Under the pieces are notes generated by a model. That model was given only the letters and a program-made list of their open reading frames with translations. It was not told the origin of the DNA and did no database searches. From Malacoraja senta (Eukaryota), in assembly GCA_038087875.1 (NCBI GenBank), contig CM075996.1:5768001-5832000 (forward strand): a stretch of DNA of 64,000 nucleotides, read 5' to 3'. A program made the translations under genes and the position numbers. Shown in pieces: positions 1 through 42,550 of the stretch. How positions within the stretch are numbered: position 1 is the stretch's first letter; the number at the start of each line of letters is the position of its first letter.

Positions 1-3000
1 CTCTCAGATAGCGATCTTGCTGTGTGTCTTAGAATTGTTACAACAGGATTCACTGAGGCTTCCGAACAGGAGGAAACCTTGCAGAATGTTCTCCTACCCA
101 ATCAACACTGCATCCTTCATTCTGCTCAAATGTTACAATACAATGACACACCATGGCTTGTTGTAGGAGATGATGTCAATCTCTGCCATAATCAGATAGC
201 TAGAGAAACAGCTGTCCGCTTCCTTGTTCAAACAACTAAAGACAAGGCAATGAAAAATCTGCAAGTCAAAGATTTGTCCTTATGGGCACAGGAATTTGGC
301 CAACAGGAAAAATTAACAGTTCGTTTAAAAAATATCATAAAAGCTTATCCATCCAAGAAAGATATACTAAAGGAATTAATTCAGAATGCAGATGATGCTG
401 AAGCCTCGGAAATCCATTTTATTTGGGATCCCAGAAAACATGGCAGCACAAAAACTTTTGGTGAGGAATGGAATACACTTCAGGGACCAGCATTGTGTGT
501 TTACAATAACAAAAAATTCACAGATAAGGACGTTGAAGGTATACAACAACTTGGGGAAGGAGGCAAACGCAATAGTCCAGAGAAAACTGGAAAGTATGGG
601 CTTGGTTTTAATTCAGTGTATCATTTGACAGACTGCCCCTCCTTTCTGTCAGGTGACAGAATGCTGTGCATCTTTGATCCTCATTTAGCTGTGCTTGCCA
701 CAGCAAAGCCACATTCTCCAGGAGGAATGTTTACAGTCAACCAGAAATTTAAAACTACTTTTGAGGATGTTTATACTACTTTTCTTCCTACCTTCTTCAA
801 GCTTGAATTGGGTACCATGTTCCGATTGCCATTGAGAACAGTAGAAATGGCTGAAAAATCAGATATCTCAAAGCAAGCAGTCACAAAGGATGTAATTCTC
901 GAATTGCTGGAATTGTTGAAAGCCGATTGTGATAGTCTCCTTTTGTTTTTAAATAATATCAAGAAAATTAGTTTCCACAAAGTGGACAAAAAAACAAGTG
1001 AAATACATGAAATATTTACTGCAGTAATAGAAATATCACAAGAAAGCATTAACAAACAGGAGCAACTGAAGAATTATATACAGAAGTATTCAAATTCAAA
1101 AGCTATAGTATCTAAAGAAGAATTTCCTCAAGTAACATATGAAATGGAGATTCGTTCTTCTATCAAAAATCCGACCAGATGGATTTTGGCAAATAAAGTG
1201 GGTGTTCATGAAGCAGAAGTTACTGAGACAGTGCAGAACCTTTATTCCAACCTGGGTCAGACATTTTTGCCTCGGGGTTCTGTTGCTGCCTGTATTAACT
1301 GCAGCAGTTTTCAAGGTAAAGCCTTTTGCTTCTTGCCTTTGCCAATAGAAACTGGGCTGCCTGTACACATCAATGGAAACTTTGCTGTTGACTTTGCCAG
1401 GCGAGACCTTTGGAAACAGGATGGCCAGAGCGGAAAGATGAAATGGAACAACTTTTTAAAATTACATCTGATTGCACCTTTGTATGCAGATTTACTTGAT
1501 TACATTCGGACACATTTACCTGGTAATAAAGCAGGTCCACTAAAATTTAACAGTTTGGAATTATGCAGAAACATTGTTGAACCCAGTTATCTCTGGTTCT
1601 TTCCTCATGTCTCTGAAGAAGTTCCTCAGGAATGGCAATTAATGATAAATCAAGTTTACAAATGCATATATCAAAAGGGCCTGTGTCTGATCCCTGTGGT
1701 CAAACATGAAAGTAGTATATTGTGCAATGAGAAGAAAGTTATTCATATTTCTTGGTCCAGTTTGAACAAGGAGAAAAAAGACGAAGTTCCTCACTTTGTA
1801 ACTACTCACATAACAGGAAAACTGACTGAAATTTTAGAAGATATTGGTATGAATTTAGTCTTACAGTCTATCTATATGTCCAAAGTTTTGAAAGCTTTAG
1901 AAAGAGCTTGTTTGGATATCTCTGTTTTGAACCCTGGGACAGTCAGGAAGTTTCTTCTAATCCATCCACTGAACAACACAGAGTCAACAAATAGCAACTA
2001 TCCCCTCCCACTCAGTGAATCCTTGATTAAAGACGGTACCAGATGCATGGCTCTTTTAGACTACTGTCTCTCTGATGTCAAGGAAGGAAATTATAATGCT
2101 CTAAATCATTTACCTCTGTTAGTCACGCAAGACAATATGCTGGGAAAATTTAAACGAGCCTCTCCAAAATATATCACTAAATTCTACGATTTATTTCCAG
2201 AATCCCTGGCACATTTTGCAAACTACGATGTCAACAAAAAATATAAAGATCTTCTCATGGCTGCTCTTATTTTAGAAGATTTCACAATTTCAAGGTCAGA
2301 ACAATTCATCCGAAACAAACTTGGATGTAGATTTCAAATTAAGTCTACTGATCCACACTTATGGATAAACGTCACTGAAAATGAACAATATACAGAATGG
2401 CTGAAGAAACTGTGGAGGTATTTTGAGGGCCATGTAAAATGTGATAATGACAATGAGAACACATTTGATAATCTCAAATTAATATTCTCAGATCTTGCTA
2501 TATTGCCGGTAGTATGTCCAATTTATCAAGGCCAGTGTCTACTCGCACCCATGGGATCGTTAAATAGTGTTATCTGTGAAATGACTCAAACCACCATAGC
2601 ACAAATTCTGCTAAAGCTTGGTTTTGCTAAAATTTCTGCAGATTACTTTTCCATGAAAGTACTATTTAATTGCATTAGACCTCATTCTTTAAGAACCGAT
2701 GACAAAGCCTCCATTTTACAACATCTGCGATTGACAAAATTAAGCTGGAATAATTTAAGTGAGTGGGAAATTGAAACTATATTGAGGTTCCTTCACTCTG
2801 GAATGGAAACAAGTGATGATAGACATAAATACCAGGATCAGCTAAAAACTCTTCCACTTTATGAAACAATGGAAGGGAGTTTTGAAACTATTGAGATGTA
2901 CAATATGATTTACATTCTAAATACTCAATTCATCAATACATTTCCACATTTATATAAATTGGACAGCTCGTCTGTATTTTTGAAAAAAACAAGGATAAAT

Positions 3001-6000
3001 ACTGAGGTGTCAGAAGATTTGGGAATTCATATAATTGACGATTTACAATTTTTTATGGATTACATCATTCCTAACATTGAACAAATATTTAATGATCAAA
3101 AGCTGGATGTCTTACGTTTCTTGTATAATATAATCTGCTGTTATAATACAGATTATGAAATGAAAAAAGAAAAAATTGTGTCTAATCTCAAAAGCATAAA
3201 ACTGATCAAAGCCAAGAATGGAATATTTCAAAAAGTGTCATATTTCTATGAGAAGAAAGAACCCTTATTTAAAATTATGATTACAGCAGAAAAGTTTGTT
3301 CCTGAGAGTTTTTTTAAAAGTATGGGTTGCTATTATGATGATTCCAATTTAATCAAATTGCTGAAGGATCTGGGAATTAAGCGCTCTGTTTCTTCAGATG
3401 ATTTTATCGCTTTTGCATTGCAAGTTTCAGAAGAGGTGAACATGCATGCTCCTTTGAAAGAACTAATTGAAAAAAGTGATGCTTTGCTCACATACTTCTG
3501 TAATGTAGAAGAGGAGAACCTTCAAAAGGATTTTTATGAAAAAGTGGCAGATATTAAATTTGTTTATCCACACAAAGTTCGAGAGTTTCTACGTAGCTTA
3601 CATCCACCTTATGCAGAAGGGAGGAGTTTTGTTCCATTGAAGAGCTCATTGGTGAAACAGCGGGAGGAAGACGAGGACTTGGTTTGGACTTCCATGCCTA
3701 TTTTACCATCAAAATGTGCACTGTCAAGAAATATGAGTAGGTTAAAAGCTGTTGGTGCTCTTTTTGTTCCTCCAGAAACAACAGTCATAGCAAACCTTAG
3801 GAAAATTTGCTTTGCTGCCTGTAAAAATCACAGTGCCTTAAAAACCAGATCCAAAGTGCTTCAGACTGCGTATAGCTTCCTTCAAAATCATTCATTTGAT
3901 GTGCTGTCTCTTGCTGATCTTCCAATTGTTCTTGTAGAAGAGGACACTCTGCTGATAAAAATCAGCCAGGTGGTGTTCTCATTACAAAATTATGATGAGT
4001 TTCATCCTTATTTATATCGGCTCCCTCCAGTGCTAGCTCCATACCATGAGTTCTTCCAGAAGTTGGGTGTTGCTCTGGAGCCATCAGCTTCTCATCTTGT
4101 TCAGATACTCATATCTCTTTATGAAGATTCCAGCAAAGTGATTAGCTTAAATCCAAACCAAATGATAACTGTGAAACGAACCTTGTATCATCTGTTTACA
4201 CTTTTGGAATCTAGAACAGAGGAACGGACAGTTGAAAAATTAAAGCCACTGCATCTCCCAGCAAGTGATGGTATTATGTACCCATCCAATACATTATGTT
4301 TCAATGATAGAATTAGTACAGGTTCCAGAATAGATGTCAGTGTGTTAAAAGGAAAGTTTAATTTTCTTCTCGATCTGGGTGAATGTCATTTGAGTTCTGA
4401 TCCTTACAAGCAGATAAATCTTTTACAATTTCTACCTGAAGAAATTCGTCCAAAGATGCTTTCACAGTTAACAGAGGAAATTCTCAATGAATCGGTTCTG
4501 TGTCTTTGTCCATATGGAAATGATTGCATGTTCAGGAATGATTTCTACAAGCTTCTTGTGTCCTCTAATTTTAGAGGTGGGTTAGTGAGCTTGTTAAAGG
4601 CTCAGTGCTGCGGAGAGCTGCCTGTGAGTGACATTCAGCGCGATTGTGAAAATGTATTTTCTAAAATACAAATTATTTGCTGCGAAAAACTGGAAACAAT
4701 TCTTTGCTTAGGGTCAGAACAGCTGATTAACACCAGCATCGAGAAACAAGTCTACACCAAGATAAGCAATACAGGTACTGGTGTGGTGTACCTAGAACAC
4801 AGAGATAATGTACCATTCAGTATGAGAACTGTCATCATACATTCTTTGGCGACTGAGCTCAATTCACTGTTGAAGAATGCCTTAAACAAAGATTCACTGT
4901 TAATTCTGGTGCTGATGCTCAGCTGTGAAAATCCACATGACATACAGAAAGTGTTGGAAGACAAAGGCATCCTCACTCGTAAGTTAAAAGTCCAGATGCC
5001 AACGAACCAGCCTAGTCCTGGAGATCCCATTCCAGAAGAACTGATTCACACATTGGAAATGGATATTGCACATAATTTCAAACCTGGTGAATATATAGCT
5101 TATAAGGACCCATCTGCAAATGATTATGTATATGCCATTTTTATTGAGTGTTTCAACACAGATAAGTTTACCAAAGATATAAGGATAGAAAAGTGTAAGA
5201 TAAAGATAGCTACAGATATCTTCATTACCGTCAACCATCTGGATTTGTACAAATTTGGTCAACATAAGATGCCCGAGGAAATATGCCAGAAAGCTGTTGT
5301 ATTGGATACATCAAAAGATAAACTGCAAACATCCAGCCAGAAATATGAGTCATTGGACAGCATTAAGAAAGAAATTCAGGAATATCTAAAGGAAGTTAGA
5401 AATCTCCCTAAGGATGAGAGACAGAAAGCAATTCGTCGCCTGTATCTGAAGTGGCATCCAGACAAAAACCCAAGCAATGTGGAAGTAACGACAAAGTTGT
5501 GTCACTTTATTCAAGAGAAAGTGAAGCAGCTGGACATAATCGGAGCGGAGAGTGGAAGCACCTCATCAAATTACAAAAGCTCCTTTTCCAGAAAAGAGGA
5601 AGATTTTTCTTCATTTTTCAATCAATGGAATAGTGAGGCGTCAAGACATAAGCAGAGACCACCACAGCAGAAAAAAAGTCAATCTGCCAGTGAATTCTGG
5701 TCATTCCCAAACAAAAATCAGCCTAATCCAGAAGAGGCTGAAAGATGGCTTAGACAAGCAAAATGTGATCTCCGAGCAGCTTTCAATGACCTGGGCTCTG
5801 CCGGCCAAGACTGTACTGCCACCGAATGGTTGTATTTTAAAATTCATCAAGCTGTTGAAAAAGCTTTAATTGCTGCAGAGTACAAGAAAAGCGGAAAATG
5901 TGTTAGTGACCAGAGCATCACCTTCCTTGCCAAACAGGTATCAAAGTATGGTGCAAAACTATCAGAGCTGGGGAGCTTGGTGAATAAACTCAAAGAACAT

Positions 6001-26026: not shown

Positions 26027-26233
26027 CTGCATTGTAGAAGGAGCTCTGGGTTAGTCTGGGTTGTGCTCTGATCGCCATCTTCAACCTCCAATCCTTGCTC
26101 CTCTTCTGCAAGCTTACTTTAGTTAGGAGTTAGCATGGAGACAGGCCCTTCGACCCATCGATTGCCGGTACACACTAGTTCTATGTTTGCCCACTTGTTT
26201 GCATCCACTCCCTACACACTAGGGCCAATTAAT

Positions 26234-26287
26234 GGGGTGGGAGATTGCAACCTTCACGTGGTCCGCCCTGTTTCGACGAATGCAATC
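26234..26287 (+). ncRNA. Minimal HDV/CPEB3-like self-cleaving ribozyme (predicted)
   Basis: P1 GGGGUGG/CCGCCCU, P2 GAUUGCA/UGCAAUC, P3 ACC/GGU, L3 UUCACGU, J1/4 GU, J4/2 C-GAA with the candidate catalytic C at 26277. Confidence 0.8.
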
Positions 26288-26375
26288 AACCTGGCGTGCA
26301 CGATCAAATAAGATCAAATAGAACAAGTTGTCCTACAACTTTAGGCTGTGCACGCCATACGCAAGAAGAAGATGA
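26234..26375 (+). mobile_element. ~140-bp ribozyme-headed retroposon (Ingi/Vingi-like non-autonomous SINE), copy 1
   Basis: 13-bp TSD AGGGCCAATTAAT / AGGGCCAACTAAT, GCCATACGCAAGAAGAAG tail, and a second copy at 40435 with the same 5' end. Confidence 0.85.
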
Positions 26376-28630
26376 AGGGCCAACTAATGTGCAAACCCGC
26401 AAGTCATTGGGATGTGGGAGGAAACCGTGAGCACCCGGTGGATACCCACGCGGTCACAGGGAGAAGGTGCAAACTCCACATAGACAGCACCCGAGATCAG
26501 GATCGGACCTGGGTCTGCGAGGAAGCAGCTCGACCCGCTGCGCCACTGTTCCGTGCTGAGCATCCACACCTTGGCCTCCGTCTGCCTGTTCCTCTGGGTT
26601 TCTGAAGCCGTCGCTCCCTCTCCCTGCAAGCCCTGCTCTCTGGTAAAGCTGGTTAGCACGCAACAAAAGCTTTTCACTGTACCTCGGTAGAGGTGACGAT
26701 AAACGATCCTGAAACTGAGCAACGCCCTTCTCCTCAACGGGCAGGGCCCTGTCACGTTCAGCCTCCCTGTACTCTGCTGCCTCCTGCAACCAGGTTCAGG
26801 GCCAGGTCCCGACCAGGAACAAGTTCACAAGTTTTAGGGGTAGAATTAGGCCATTCGGCCCATCGAGTCTACGCCAGTCAATCATGGCTGATCTCCGCCT
26901 CCTAATCCCAGTTTCCCGCCTTCTCTCCATAACTCGACACCCATTCTAATCAAGAATTTGTCTATCTCTGCTTTAAAAATATCCACAGACTTGGCCTCCG
27001 CAGCCCCCCTGTGGCAAAGAGTTCCACAGATTCACCACCCTCTGACTAAAGAAGTTCCTTCTCACCTCTTTTCTAAAAATGCGTCCTTTAATTCTGAGGC
27101 TCTGACCTCTGGTCCGAGACTCTCCCACCAGTGGAAACATCCTTTCCACATCCACTCTATCTATGCCTTTCATTATTCTGTAAGTTTCAATGATGTCCCC
27201 CCCTCAACCATCTAAACTCCAGTGAGTTGAGGCCCAGTGCTGTCAAACGCTCACCATCTGCTAACCCACTCATTCCTGGAATCATTCGTAAACCTCCTCT
27301 GGACCCTCTCCAGAGCCAGCACATCCTTCCTCAGATATGGGCATCAAATTTGCTCACAGTACTCCACATGCAGCCTGACCAGGTATAACTGCTAGCATTG
27401 AATTTGCCTTCATTACTACCGATTCGGCTTGCAGATGAACTTTGTGGGATCCAAGCGCCCATCTCAAGGGCAAAGCCTTACCGAATTACTGTTGGACAGT
27501 GGTGCCTTTTGGCCATATCCATCAGGCGAGAATGAAATGCTCGTAGAAGGAGAAAGAGGTGCAGCGCACGCATAGGTCTTGAACCTGGTGAGACGCAGGA
27601 GGAGCCCGGCCTGGACTCACCCCACAGAGCCCAGTCCCTCCACGCACTAGAGTCTCCCAACCCCTGCAGTGTGGTTACTAAGATGGCTGATCCGTGGGCG
27701 GTTGCTGCTGGGACGTAAGTCGGGGCCTGATCAACCCCGGCTGGGTCGCCTGGCGAGGGTGTCTGATGTTGTGAGACCCGAAACACCCGATGACCCCCCA
27801 GGTCACATCACTGAGGATGCGTCCCAGCCCATCTAGAAGTTTTATCTTTTCACACACGACACCCGGGAAAGTCCAACCGACAATCGGCAGATATAACTAA
27901 ATCTGTCCACACAATGGGTGGCATGGTTGAGCAGCTGGTAGAGCTGCTGCCTCACAGTGCCAGAGACCCGGGTTTCATCCGACTTCAGGTGCGGTCTGTG
28001 TGGAGTTTGCACGCTCTCCTTGTGACTGCGTGGCTTTCCTCCAGGCGCTCCGGTTTCCTCCCACACTCCAAACCCGCGCAGGCTTGTAGGTTAATTGGCT
28101 TCTGTACATTGCCCATAATGTGTAGGGTGCAAGACTGGGATAACAGAACTAATGCGCGGGTCATCGATGGTCGGTGCCGAATCGATTGGCCGAAGGGCCT
28201 GTTTCCACGCTGAATCTCTAAAGTAAAACATATATCCTGAAACGGAGCAATGAAATGTTACATTCCAAAGATGTGCGGGATTGTCGGTTACTTGACCCTG
28301 GTCTGTAGACAGCGGATGCGAGAGTGAGATAGTGTAGTGTGATCGGGTGATCAATGGTCGGCATGGACTCAGTGGGCTGAAGGGCCTGTTTCCATGCTGT
28401 ATCTCCAAACTTGGTATTGCCAGTCTGCGCGCTACGCAACTTTTTTTCCCCATCCCTGGTTTCTCTTCCACTGTGTCTCCCTCTTCCAGTCCTCCTCCCT
28501 CCCACCCCTGGCTCCTCTGCAATGGACGTGACACTGTCTGTAGTCCTTGCCATCTCCACGGCACCTTGGACGCTCGAGCGACCGTGTCCTTGCCCTCGTT
28601 AGATTTTCCTGGCATGGTGTTTATACTCAC

Positions 28631-39900: not shown

Positions 39901-40434
39901 CTGCGGAGAGCGGAGGGAGACGTCAGCGGCTGGGTCAGGGTTAGGGCAAGGGACTCTCATTGTATTCAAGTGGTGGAGGCAGGGGCGGGGAGACGCTAAG
40001 TGGCTCGGGTGGAGGAAGAGACGCACATGGGCGGCGAGCGAGGGAGCGAGGGACAGAGGACTTGGAATTGGAGAGTAAAGGGCCTGTCCCACTTACGCAA
40101 CCTTTACAGGCGACTGCCGGCACCCGTGATAGGTCGCCAAAATTTTCAACATGTTGAAAATTCAGCGGCGACCAGAAAGACGCTACGACTCTTTGGAGAC
40201 CTCTCACGACCATAGGAGACCTCTCACGACCATACAGGCGACCCCTGACGACATGTTGCGGGCGACCTCTCACGACCTTAGGAGACCTCTCACGACCATA
40301 CAGGCGACCCCTGACGACATGTTGCGGGCGACCTCTCACGACCTTAGGAGACCTCTCACGACCATACAGGCGACCCCTGACGACATGTTGCGGGCGACCT
40401 CTCACGACGTTAGGAGACCTCTCACGACCATACA

Positions 40435-40488
40435 GGGGTGGAAGATTGCAACCTTCACGTGGTCCACCCTGTTTCGACTAATGCAATC
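40435..40488 (+). ncRNA. Minimal HDV/CPEB3-like self-cleaving ribozyme (predicted), copy 2
   Basis: Same fold as copy 1, with P1 3' strand CCACCCU and J4/2 C-UAA (C at 40478). Confidence 0.8.
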
Positions 40489-40573
40489 AACTCGACGTGC
40501 ACAAACGCAAGATGAAATAGAACAAGTTGTCCTACAACTTTAGGCTGTGCACGCCACACGAAAGAAGAAGAAG
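40435..40573 (+). mobile_element. ~140-bp ribozyme-headed retroposon, copy 2
   Basis: 11-bp TSD ACGACCATACA (40424-40434 and 40574-40584); (GAA)n tail. Confidence 0.85.
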
Positions 40574-42550
40574 ACGACCATACAGCCGATGGTCGTGAGA
40601 GGTCTCCAAAGAGTCGTGGCGCCTTTCTGGTCGCCGCTGAATTTTCAACACGTTGAAAATTTCGGTGACCTGTGACGTGTGCCGGCAGTCGCCTATAAAG
40701 GTCGCGTAAGTGGGACAGGCCCTTTAGAATCATGGCAATGCGTGGCGTCGTGTGTCTATGCGAGGGTCAGCCAGAGTACTCCCCCCCCCACCCTCCAGCG
40801 GGATCGATTGAGGACCAGCCTGTCCAAGCTTACCATCAATGACCTATCTATACTAAGGGAGTCAAAGGGAAGTCCAGAACTAGGGGTCACAGTTTAAGGA
40901 TAAGAGGGAAGACTTTTAGGACCGAGATGAGGAAATCATTTTTTTACACAGAGAGTGGTGAATCTGTGGAATTCTCTGCCACAGAAGGTAGTTGAGGCCA
41001 GTTCATTGGCTATATTTAAGAGGGAGTTAGATGTGGCCCTTGTGGCTAAAGGGATCAGGGGGTATGGAGAGAAGGCAGGGATGGGATACTGAGTTGGATG
41101 ATCAGCCATGATCATATCACCATGATCATATCAAATGGCGGTGCAGGCTCGAAGGGCCGAATGGCCTACTCCTGCACCTATTTTCTATGTTTCTATGTTA
41201 CGGGGAGAAGGCAGGAGAATGGGGTGAAGAGAGGGAACACCGATCAGCCACGATAGTAACATAGAAAATAGGTGCAGGAGTAGGCCATTCGGCCCTTCAA
41301 GCCAGCACCGCCATTCAATATGATCATGGCCCATCATCCAAAATCAATACCCCGTTCCTGCTTTCTCCCCATATCCCTTGATTCCGTTAACCCTAAGAGC
41401 TAAATCTAACTCTCTCTTGAATACATCAATGATCGAATGGCAAAGCAGACTCGATGGGCTGAATGGCCTAATTCTGCTCCCTTGTCTTGTGGTCTGGGAA
41501 AGCACTTGGACCCTGGTCTTCTCTGCCCTGCTGATTCACGTGCTTGTCTAAACAACGAGAGTCCCTGCCTCCACCGACCACGCAGGCTGCGTTCCAGATT
41601 CCAACTACCTTCAGGTTAAACGTCCCTCGGATGCCCTCTAAACCCCTTCTAACCTTATCCTGAACCCATGGCCCCCTAGTGTTAGGGTGGAGGCACAGCA
41701 CCAGGATCCGGGTTCGTTCTTGGCGACTGGTGCTCTCCGTGTGGAGTTTGCACGTTCTCCCCGTGACCGAGTGGGTTTTCTCCGGCTGCTCCGGGTTTCC
41801 TTCCCACATCCCAAAGGCGTGCAGCTTTGTAAGTTAATCGGCTTCTGCAAAATTGCCCCCAGTTTGTAGGGAGTGGATGGGACATTGTGATAACATAGAA
41901 CTAGTGTACTATGATCACTGGGAGGTGACAATGAGACACCACGGGCACCGAGCTACATTCAGTTGGGATTAATGGAACTGCCTTGAGCTCTCTTATGTCT
42001 CAGTGATCTTGGGTTCCAACTTTTGGAACTCAAACTGATGACGCTGAAGGCTTTGCAGCATAGATTGAATGATTCAGCTCACCAGTTAATTCTATGCAGG
42101 AAGGAACTGCAGATGCTGGTTTAAACCGAAGATGGACACAACAAGCTGAAGCAACTCGGCGGGTCAGACAGCATCTCCGGAGAAACGGTCATAAGTGACA
42201 GCAGCAGAATTAGGCCATTCGGCCCATCAAGTCTACTCCGCCATTCAATCATGGCTGATCTATCTCTCCCTCCTAACCCCATTCTCCTTCCTTCTTCTCA
42301 TAACCCCCGACACCCGTACTAATCATAAGGAATAGGTCTTGACCTAAAATGTCACCTATTCCTCTCCTGAGATGCTGTCTGACCCGCTGAGTTACTGCAG
42401 CGTTTTGTGTCTATCTCAGGTTTAAACCAGCATCTGCAGCTCCTTCCTACATAGAATTAACTGGTTGGCTGAATCATTCAATCTATGCTACATGCTGCTA
42501 TCATTCTGCTTTGCTATTTAGTAGATGCCAATATTTGATGTACTGTACAG

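Follow-up and report, generated by a model that had tools for sequence, protein, structure and literature searches.

What is the short sequence that lies twice in the introns of a tubby-family gene of the skate Malacoraja senta, how does it spread, and what does the ribozyme fold predicted at its 5′ end contribute? The window analysed here is a 64,000-nucleotide stretch of contig CM075996.1 (assembly GCA_038087875.1, positions 5,768,001 to 5,832,000, forward strand), and window coordinates count from its first letter. We consider it very probable that the sequence is a 139-nt non-autonomous retrotransposon derived from a Vingi-like LINE, with a predicted P4-less ribozyme that likely frees its RNA from read-through transcripts.

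Two insertions in a TULP3-like gene

Copy 2, the 139-nt element (40435-40573, plus strand), is flanked by its TSD, an 11-nt sequence (ACGACCATACA) present at 40424-40434 and again at 40574-40584 (both plus strand). Copy 1 (26234-26375, plus strand) belongs to an older subfamily with G8, G32 and G45, and is bounded by a 13-nt TSD with one mismatch (26221-26233 and 26376-26388) that differs from the TSD of copy 2. The two copies are 88.7% identical over 142 columns and both start with G1. Positions 1-54 show exactly three differences (copy 1/copy 2): G/A at position 8 in J1/2, U•G versus U-A at position 32 in P1, and CGAA/CUAA at position 45 in J4/2. The last two motifs are the genomic and antigenomic variants of HDV. 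The 3′ part differs in 13 columns, including one 2-nt indel. The preliminary description had claimed a second insertion with its own TSD and the same 5′ nucleotide, three core differences all tolerated by the fold, and a more diverged downstream half; all three points hold, the HDV-like descriptor introduced below matching both copies.

The host is a TULP3-like (tubby family) gene on the minus strand, with 14 tblastn exon matches between 22584 and 50104. Most exons are about 95% identical to a skate TULP3-like protein, and the best named full-length match is TULP3-like rather than TUB. Copy 2 lies between the exon matches 43382-43221 and 39901-39785, and copy 1 between 28813-28631 and 26026-25913. 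Since minus-strand exons flank both copies, both are intronic and antisense, as had been proposed. Copy 2 inserted into a MITE-like palindrome (40076-40726, read directly from the sequence) whose interior contains tandem repeats of 66 bp; the TSD of copy 2 sits in the 66-bp unit and is also present at 40226, 40292 and 40358. Elements resembling this MITE host or interrupt other copies as well (L113, L216).

The predicted ribozyme fold

The first 54 nt of the element (40435-40488 in copy 2, plus strand) are predicted to fold into a P4-less HDV-like ribozyme that would cleave itself before G1, i.e. 5′ of 40435; the prediction combines a descriptor match, a sub-threshold Rfam match and compensatory changes between families. 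In core numbering, the predicted helices are P1 (1-7/30-36, with G1•U36), P2 (10-16/48-54, separated from P1 by J1/2 at 8-9), P3 (17-19/27-29, closed by L3 at 20-26) and P1.1 (C22-G37 plus U21•U38). J4/2 reads CUAA, with the putative catalytic C44 at window position 40478, and a short loop is predicted in place of P4.

A structure descriptor for the HDV double pseudoknot was scanned on both strands of the window and of 350 kb of other loci. On the two strands of the window it matches exactly twice, at copy 1 and copy 2, and in the controls from the 350 kb neither the minus strands nor any of three shuffles gave a match. The helices of the outer pseudoknot, P1 (with G1•Y) and P2, have seven pairs each in both window copies. 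The 3-bp P3 and an L3 with U20, C24 and G25 are present as in the descriptor given in the available text of PMC6326823. The predicted P1.1 has one C-G pair and a U•U pair, where that descriptor has two C-G pairs; fast ribozymes with a non-Watson-Crick second P1.1 pair are described in the accessible part of bioRxiv 10.64898/2026.02.27.708514. C44 is followed by N-R-A in both copies; CUAA departs from the stricter CRRA in the same excerpt of PMC6326823, and it occurs in the RF02682 consensus and in the Vingi-like locus L245 discussed below. The P4 helix is absent, only 7 nt (2 of them J1/4) leading from P1 to C44.

In Rfam, no match reaches the gathering threshold of the HDV-like models, which are family-specific and include P4; the sub-threshold match to RF02682 covers exactly 40435-40488 (17.5 bits versus a gathering score of 44, E 0.42). 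Minimum-free-energy folds contain P1 or P2 only (z-scores 0.69 and 1.80), the folding tool being unable to model pseudoknots. The position of the fold at the 5′ end of a LINE (see below), together with the null descriptor controls, makes a chance match unlikely. A change of the catalytic C to U abolishes activity in relatives, according to the available portions of PMC10879173 and bioRxiv 10.64898/2026.02.27.708514; C44>U is seen at 2-4% of depth among aligned contigs of related organisms.

Bipartite origin from a Vingi-like LINE

A LINE search with a pattern derived from a C-terminal motif of Vingi gave 120 matches, 30 of which were inspected. The 3′ ends of these 30 share their last 40-45 nt with the element, at 95-100% identity in most, and the ORF ends within this segment. 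At the other end, 5′-inverted and full-length LINE copies carry the same ribozyme and about 80 nt in common with the short element, followed by the 5′ UTR and an APE endonuclease. L215 is a full-length copy of 2.8 kb (275-3066) with a TSD. As the element shares both ends with one LINE, it is a bipartite internal-deletion derivative (about 80 nt of 5′ and about 45 nt of 3′ sequence), and it shows all the features of bipartite LINE derivatives: shared 5′ and 3′ ends, no ORF, no Pol III head, and TSDs. Its origin from a Vingi-like LINE of about 3 kb in the same genome is thereby shown; such derivatives as a kind are described in the consulted part of PMC5786205. In copy 2 the ribozyme is followed by the remainder of the 5′ UTR segment taken from the LINE (40489-40515, plus strand; common to the LINE up to about position 80), the deletion junction with short duplicated or unassigned letters (40516-40528, plus strand, its approximate boundaries set by comparison of LINE ends), and the LINE-derived 3′ end with the last ORF codons and stop, a short 3′ UTR and a GAA-repeat tail (40529-40573, plus strand).

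The LINE itself was assigned by its domains. APE endonuclease, RVT_1 and a C-terminal Cys/His motif are found on the LINE fragments and on P0121, and an RNase H domain has no match on either. P0121 is an intact homolog of 1,019 aa that shares 72% identity with the skate LINE. It is far closer than any other listed homolog, nearly all of which are 39-50% identical, and either a related host or horizontal transfer could explain this closeness. In the available text of PMC13708176, Vingi elements are about 3 kb long, with one ORF for an APE endonuclease and a reverse transcriptase (RT) and no RNase H. The partner LINE fits this architecture, its single ORF being deduced from broken copies together with intact P0121. 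We therefore call it Vingi-like, a name that is based on architecture and 5′ likeness rather than on a tree with reference elements; no named Vingi protein is among the 120 homology matches listed. The LINE core has the state G8/A32/U45, with A32 in 14 of 14 and U45 in 13 of 14 distinct readable 5′ ends, and G8 in six of six. All inspected LINE copies are broken, at about 88-92% identity to each other, and no current RT source for the young subfamily of the short element was found among them. Many have inverted 5′ portions (L168, L170, L187 and others). Such inversions resemble the twin priming of L1.

Negation patterns for a partner gave 84 matches, and the 8 regions inspected contained nothing but segmental duplicates, interrupted copies and variants with deletions; another such pattern gave 3 matches. 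A search by double negation for a sister family whose P3 closes with a different pair gave 2 matches and no family, and a metagenome DNA pattern scan gave 0 matches. About 10 nt of the LINE 5′ UTR segment are complementary to the LINE 3′ end, which allows the ends of the short element to pair in the fold (40489-40560); in the subfamily of copy 2 the joining stem contains mismatches.

Family size, boundaries and age

Exact patterns found 2,772 matches for a 5′ 35-mer and 3,135 for a 3′ 33-mer (0 for reversed controls), and the copy number is about 9,000 (Lincoln-Petersen estimate, with an overlap on C1 of 29 between 85 and 100). When 30 copies were chosen by the 3′ pattern alone, 28 reached the 5′ end, one was truncated and one interrupted. 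TSDs were detected in 95 of 110 copies, 72 of the 95 being 10-13 nt long, and in 74 of the 95 the 5′ end lies at offset 0 or +1. Upstream of their 5′ end, the copies with a TSD show an excess of T at 13-15 nt and an A at -11. ARAGORN found no tRNA in the element. Near-identical sequence occurs in runs of seven organisms. The 5′ boundary is sharp, with an accumulation of loose ends at 26233/26234 in three DNA runs from related organisms.

The family comprises several subfamilies distinguished by diagnostic sites. In L120 an element of the copy 2 type is nested in one of the copy 1 type, and one insertion of the copy 2 type is missing at the orthologous site in run X20 (empty site). The subfamily of copy 2 is therefore younger than that of copy 1, and recent insertions are shown for the family. 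In a second short subfamily (L068, L073) a longer part of the LINE 5′ UTR is left beside the junction, which points to an internal deletion that probably occurred more than once or stepwise.

Selection on the fold

The preliminary description took the pattern in two copies as a sign of selection on the fold in the source elements. By our classification, 33-34% of the possible core substitutions are tolerated, or 45-50% if weighted for CpG sites and transitions, and three tolerated changes out of three then arise by chance with P 0.04-0.13. One of the three is also doubtful as a source-level change: in the subfamily of copy 2 (exact 72-mer), A32 is found in 19 copies versus 235 with G32 (7.5%), a level also reached by other CpG G>A changes (about 5-16% in aligned contigs of related organisms), so the A32 of copy 2 is probably decay after insertion. 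In older subfamilies A32 is a true source-level state. The direction implied earlier, from copy 1 to copy 2, is reversed, since the parent LINE carries G8/A32/U45 and the U•G pair and CGAA of copy 1 are thus derived. Subfamily-diagnostic sites, counted by eye, number three of 54 in the core versus about 12 of 75 outside it (Fisher p=0.095).

Among inserted copies (n=29, chosen by the 3′ end) we counted 23 tolerated and 25 disruptive core substitutions, with a neutral expectation of 45-50% tolerated, and 16 of the 29 carry a disruptive core change; genomic copies drift neutrally after insertion. The argument for selection comes instead from other families. In the Vingi-like locus L245 (with L246), where the fold lies upstream of the ORF, 10 of 17 pairs are changed on both sides and none is broken, a count that is partly circular, the match having been found by requiring pairing. 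In L250, found by eye and segmented by hand, seven of 17 pairs are changed on both sides and one is broken. These are the only two families with the fold among 80 metagenome Vingi-like loci, most of which lack the 5′ end. Repbase Vingi 5′ ends, as given in the available part of the PMC5786205 supplement, have the same L3, P1 end and J4/2 but other stems. The compensatory changes between Vingi-like families thus strongly support selection on the predicted fold in the source elements; the argument from the two window copies is weak.

Orientation of intronic copies

We sampled 100 loci of 10 kb, favouring small chromosomes, scaffolds and near-consensus copies and counting each of two duplicate pairs once. 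Exon prediction, controlled on the host gene, yielded 269 candidates for a Pfam scan, which gave 12 loci a supported orientation: ten antisense (L313, L326, L339, L349, L351, L355, L370, L378, L385, L398) and two sense (L343, L387; p=0.039). Where an exon was found on one side only, we counted the case because we judged that exon to be internal; for copies flanked by exons on either side, the ratio is 6:1 (p=0.125). Pfam matches to transposon domains (L321, L357, L366, L375, L392) and a weak match (L335) were not counted. Two further loci were oriented by protein likeness to what we take to be eIF4B and BAG6, which gives 12:2. The CR1/L2-type 3′ ends in the 14 loci are 44 antisense and 39 sense (Fisher p=0.063 versus 10:2, and p=0.038 versus 12:2). 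Unverified candidates lean both ways (antisense L311, L335, L336, L328, L386; sense L316, L340, L394). Strand skew, tried as a proxy for gene orientation, was dropped because it was not consistent along the host gene.

The cores of the two sense copies are intact, and the copies lie in or adjoining NELFCD-like and TOP3A-like exons. The one at L343:4954-5090 is young, stands in a NELFCD/TH1-like gene and is missing in a related organism; spliced RNA contigs from related organisms confirm that it stands in an intron. Among 20 loci with LINE 3′ fragments, the two ribozyme-less ones that could be oriented with Pfam are antisense (L422, L417). A third fragment (L414) is antisense by what is presumably an ADAM-like exon, and L416, unverified, is likewise antisense. 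On C1 (171 positions, two duplicated pairs included), neighbouring copies within 100 kb show no strand concordance (18 same, 21 opposite).

The antisense bias of intronic copies is thus probably real but moderate. The earlier suggestion that sense copies would cut the pre-mRNA gains modest independent support from the 10:2 ratio; the intact sense copies and the antisense ribozyme-less fragments speak against the ribozyme as cause of the bias. That cleavage contributes to the lean is conceivable, and on balance we lean against it.

Proposed mechanism and its alternatives

A source copy would be transcribed by read-through or from an internal promoter, and the ribozyme would cut before G1 and free the element RNA from the read-through transcript. 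The LINE protein would then bind the shared 3′ end and reverse-transcribe the freed RNA in trans, recognition of this end by the LINE reverse transcriptase being likely, and priming at a nick would leave the TSD of 10-13 nt. These steps are modelled on HDV-like ribozymes in R2, L1Tc and RTE elements, as described in the available part of PMC6765202. Selection would act on source elements only, because only sources with a working ribozyme would yield full-length daughters, and inserted copies would decay neutrally.

Alternatively, what preserves the 5′ 54 nt might mainly be a role as internal promoter or as a site for protein binding, comparable to Pr77 in L1Tc; the ribozyme of the short element would then be slow or dead, and its fold an inheritance from the LINE that needs no catalysis. 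The same 77 nt of L1Tc/NARTc indeed serve as promoter and ribozyme in the consulted text of PMC3383444, and the two intact-core copies in sense orientation, in or adjoining NELFCD-like and TOP3A-like exons, speak for it as well. The head is also nearly the same as that of the LINE, with three diagnostic sites only (p=0.095), so there are few changes on which selection could be tested. We nevertheless judge this account improbable: the stem compensations across Vingi-like families keep the pairing and the catalytic C rather than the sequence, which a DNA promoter does not need, and the predicted cut site is where the 5′ ends fall. To an RTE-dependent or tRNA-derived SINE with a coincidental HDV-like fold we give almost no credence. 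The genome does contain a family of RTE-like LINEs (L124-L153; 772 candidates at first look) that carry DUF6451 and end in an AAG tail, and the upstream T excess with A at -11 resembles the RTE insertion signature in the accessible part of PMC6007223; an RTE partner was however rejected, since 30 RTE-like loci have no common 3′ sequence with the element beyond the tail, there is no tRNA by ARAGORN, and the match of both element ends to the Vingi-like LINE refutes this origin.

For the antisense excess, a cause other than the ribozyme is in our view slightly more probable than not: the whole family may prefer such insertions, the shared 3′ end may play a part, or the sample may simply be too small. 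The antisense ribozyme-less fragments, the intact sense copies, one of them in a confirmed intron, and the lack of strand concordance on C1 all favour it. The 10:2 ratio set against 44:39 for CR1/L2-type ends counts against it, and the fragment control set is far too small to match that comparison.

Relation to known elements

With its predicted ribozyme at the head, the skate element belongs with the bipartite non-autonomous LINEs and would work like NARTc/RIME and the R2 SIDEs. RIME/NARTc (Ingi clade), the Vingi-1_EE derivatives, RTESINE1/2 and the R2 SIDEs likewise consist of LINE 5′ and 3′ ends only, as the available portions of PMC5786205 and PMC3414825 describe them, and share with it short TSDs and the lack of a small-RNA head; NARTc and SIDEs also have an HDV-like ribozyme at the 5′ end. 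The skate family differs in its about 9,000 copies of only 139 nt. Among Vingi 5′ ends, Vingi-2_Gav, Vingi-4_Crp, Vingi-2_SPur and Vingi-1_BF (PMC5786205 supplement, in the part consulted) have a G-rich start, the same or a near-identical 7-nt L3, the P1 3′ strand followed by GU, and a J4/2 of the C-G-A-A type, like the skate element, but their P1, P2 and P3 are other and a P4 stem is present where the skate element has a 5-nt connector. That part of the supplement does not describe them as ribozymes, and the available text of PMC5786205 does not have Vingi among the ribozyme-bearing clades. Minimal HDV-like and theta ribozymes, in the accessible part of PMC10879173, lack P4, are about 55 nt long, have the catalytic C in J4/2 and cut at G1, as predicted here; they were first detected only in gut bacteriophage genomes (searches of viral databases), often near tRNAs, unlike the skate fold, which heads a vertebrate retrotransposon.

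The CPEB3 ribozyme is single-copy. The 5′ ends of Vingi-2_Gav and of L245 (3117-3190) look nearly identical to it in P1, P2, P3 and L3, which suggests that it may be a domesticated Vingi 5′ end; no Vingi-CPEB3 link was found in the accessible literature. Like the skate element, the CPEB3 ribozyme is intronic and has a P1.1 of one G-C pair plus U-U, with the same numbering of U20, C22, A23 and G25; it differs in having a P4, tested activity and a position on the transcribed strand of the intron (PMC4836649, in the part available). The literature searched, with Repbase reports, patents and subscription papers outside its scope, gave no prior description of the skate family or of a Vingi ribozyme. 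Ribozyme-headed bipartite elements were already known; in that literature, none was found for a vertebrate family in which thousands of young, dated copies begin with a predicted HDV-like fold that lacks P4.

A broader reading, in which an HDV-like 5′ module is common to the whole Vingi clade, a P4-less version copied about 9,000 times in skates is active enough for sense intronic insertions to be purged, and the same module may be the source of the CPEB3 ribozyme, seems to us rather unlikely as a whole. With the skate fold, minimal HDV-like ribozymes would reach beyond gut phages into vertebrate genomes, and Vingi would join the LINE clades that carry a ribozyme at the 5′ end. Vingi UTRs serve gene-insertion platforms (PMC13708176, available part), which gives minimal cis ends a practical interest. 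Intronic copies in sense and antisense, intact and dead, would offer many natural cases for a test of how far cleavage of introns is tolerated by a gene, the open question around CPEB3; L343, with a young intact sense copy in a confirmed intron, is a ready natural test locus. If the broader reading is true, the skate copies would be a genome-wide natural test of the harm that co-transcriptional cleavage does to pre-mRNA.
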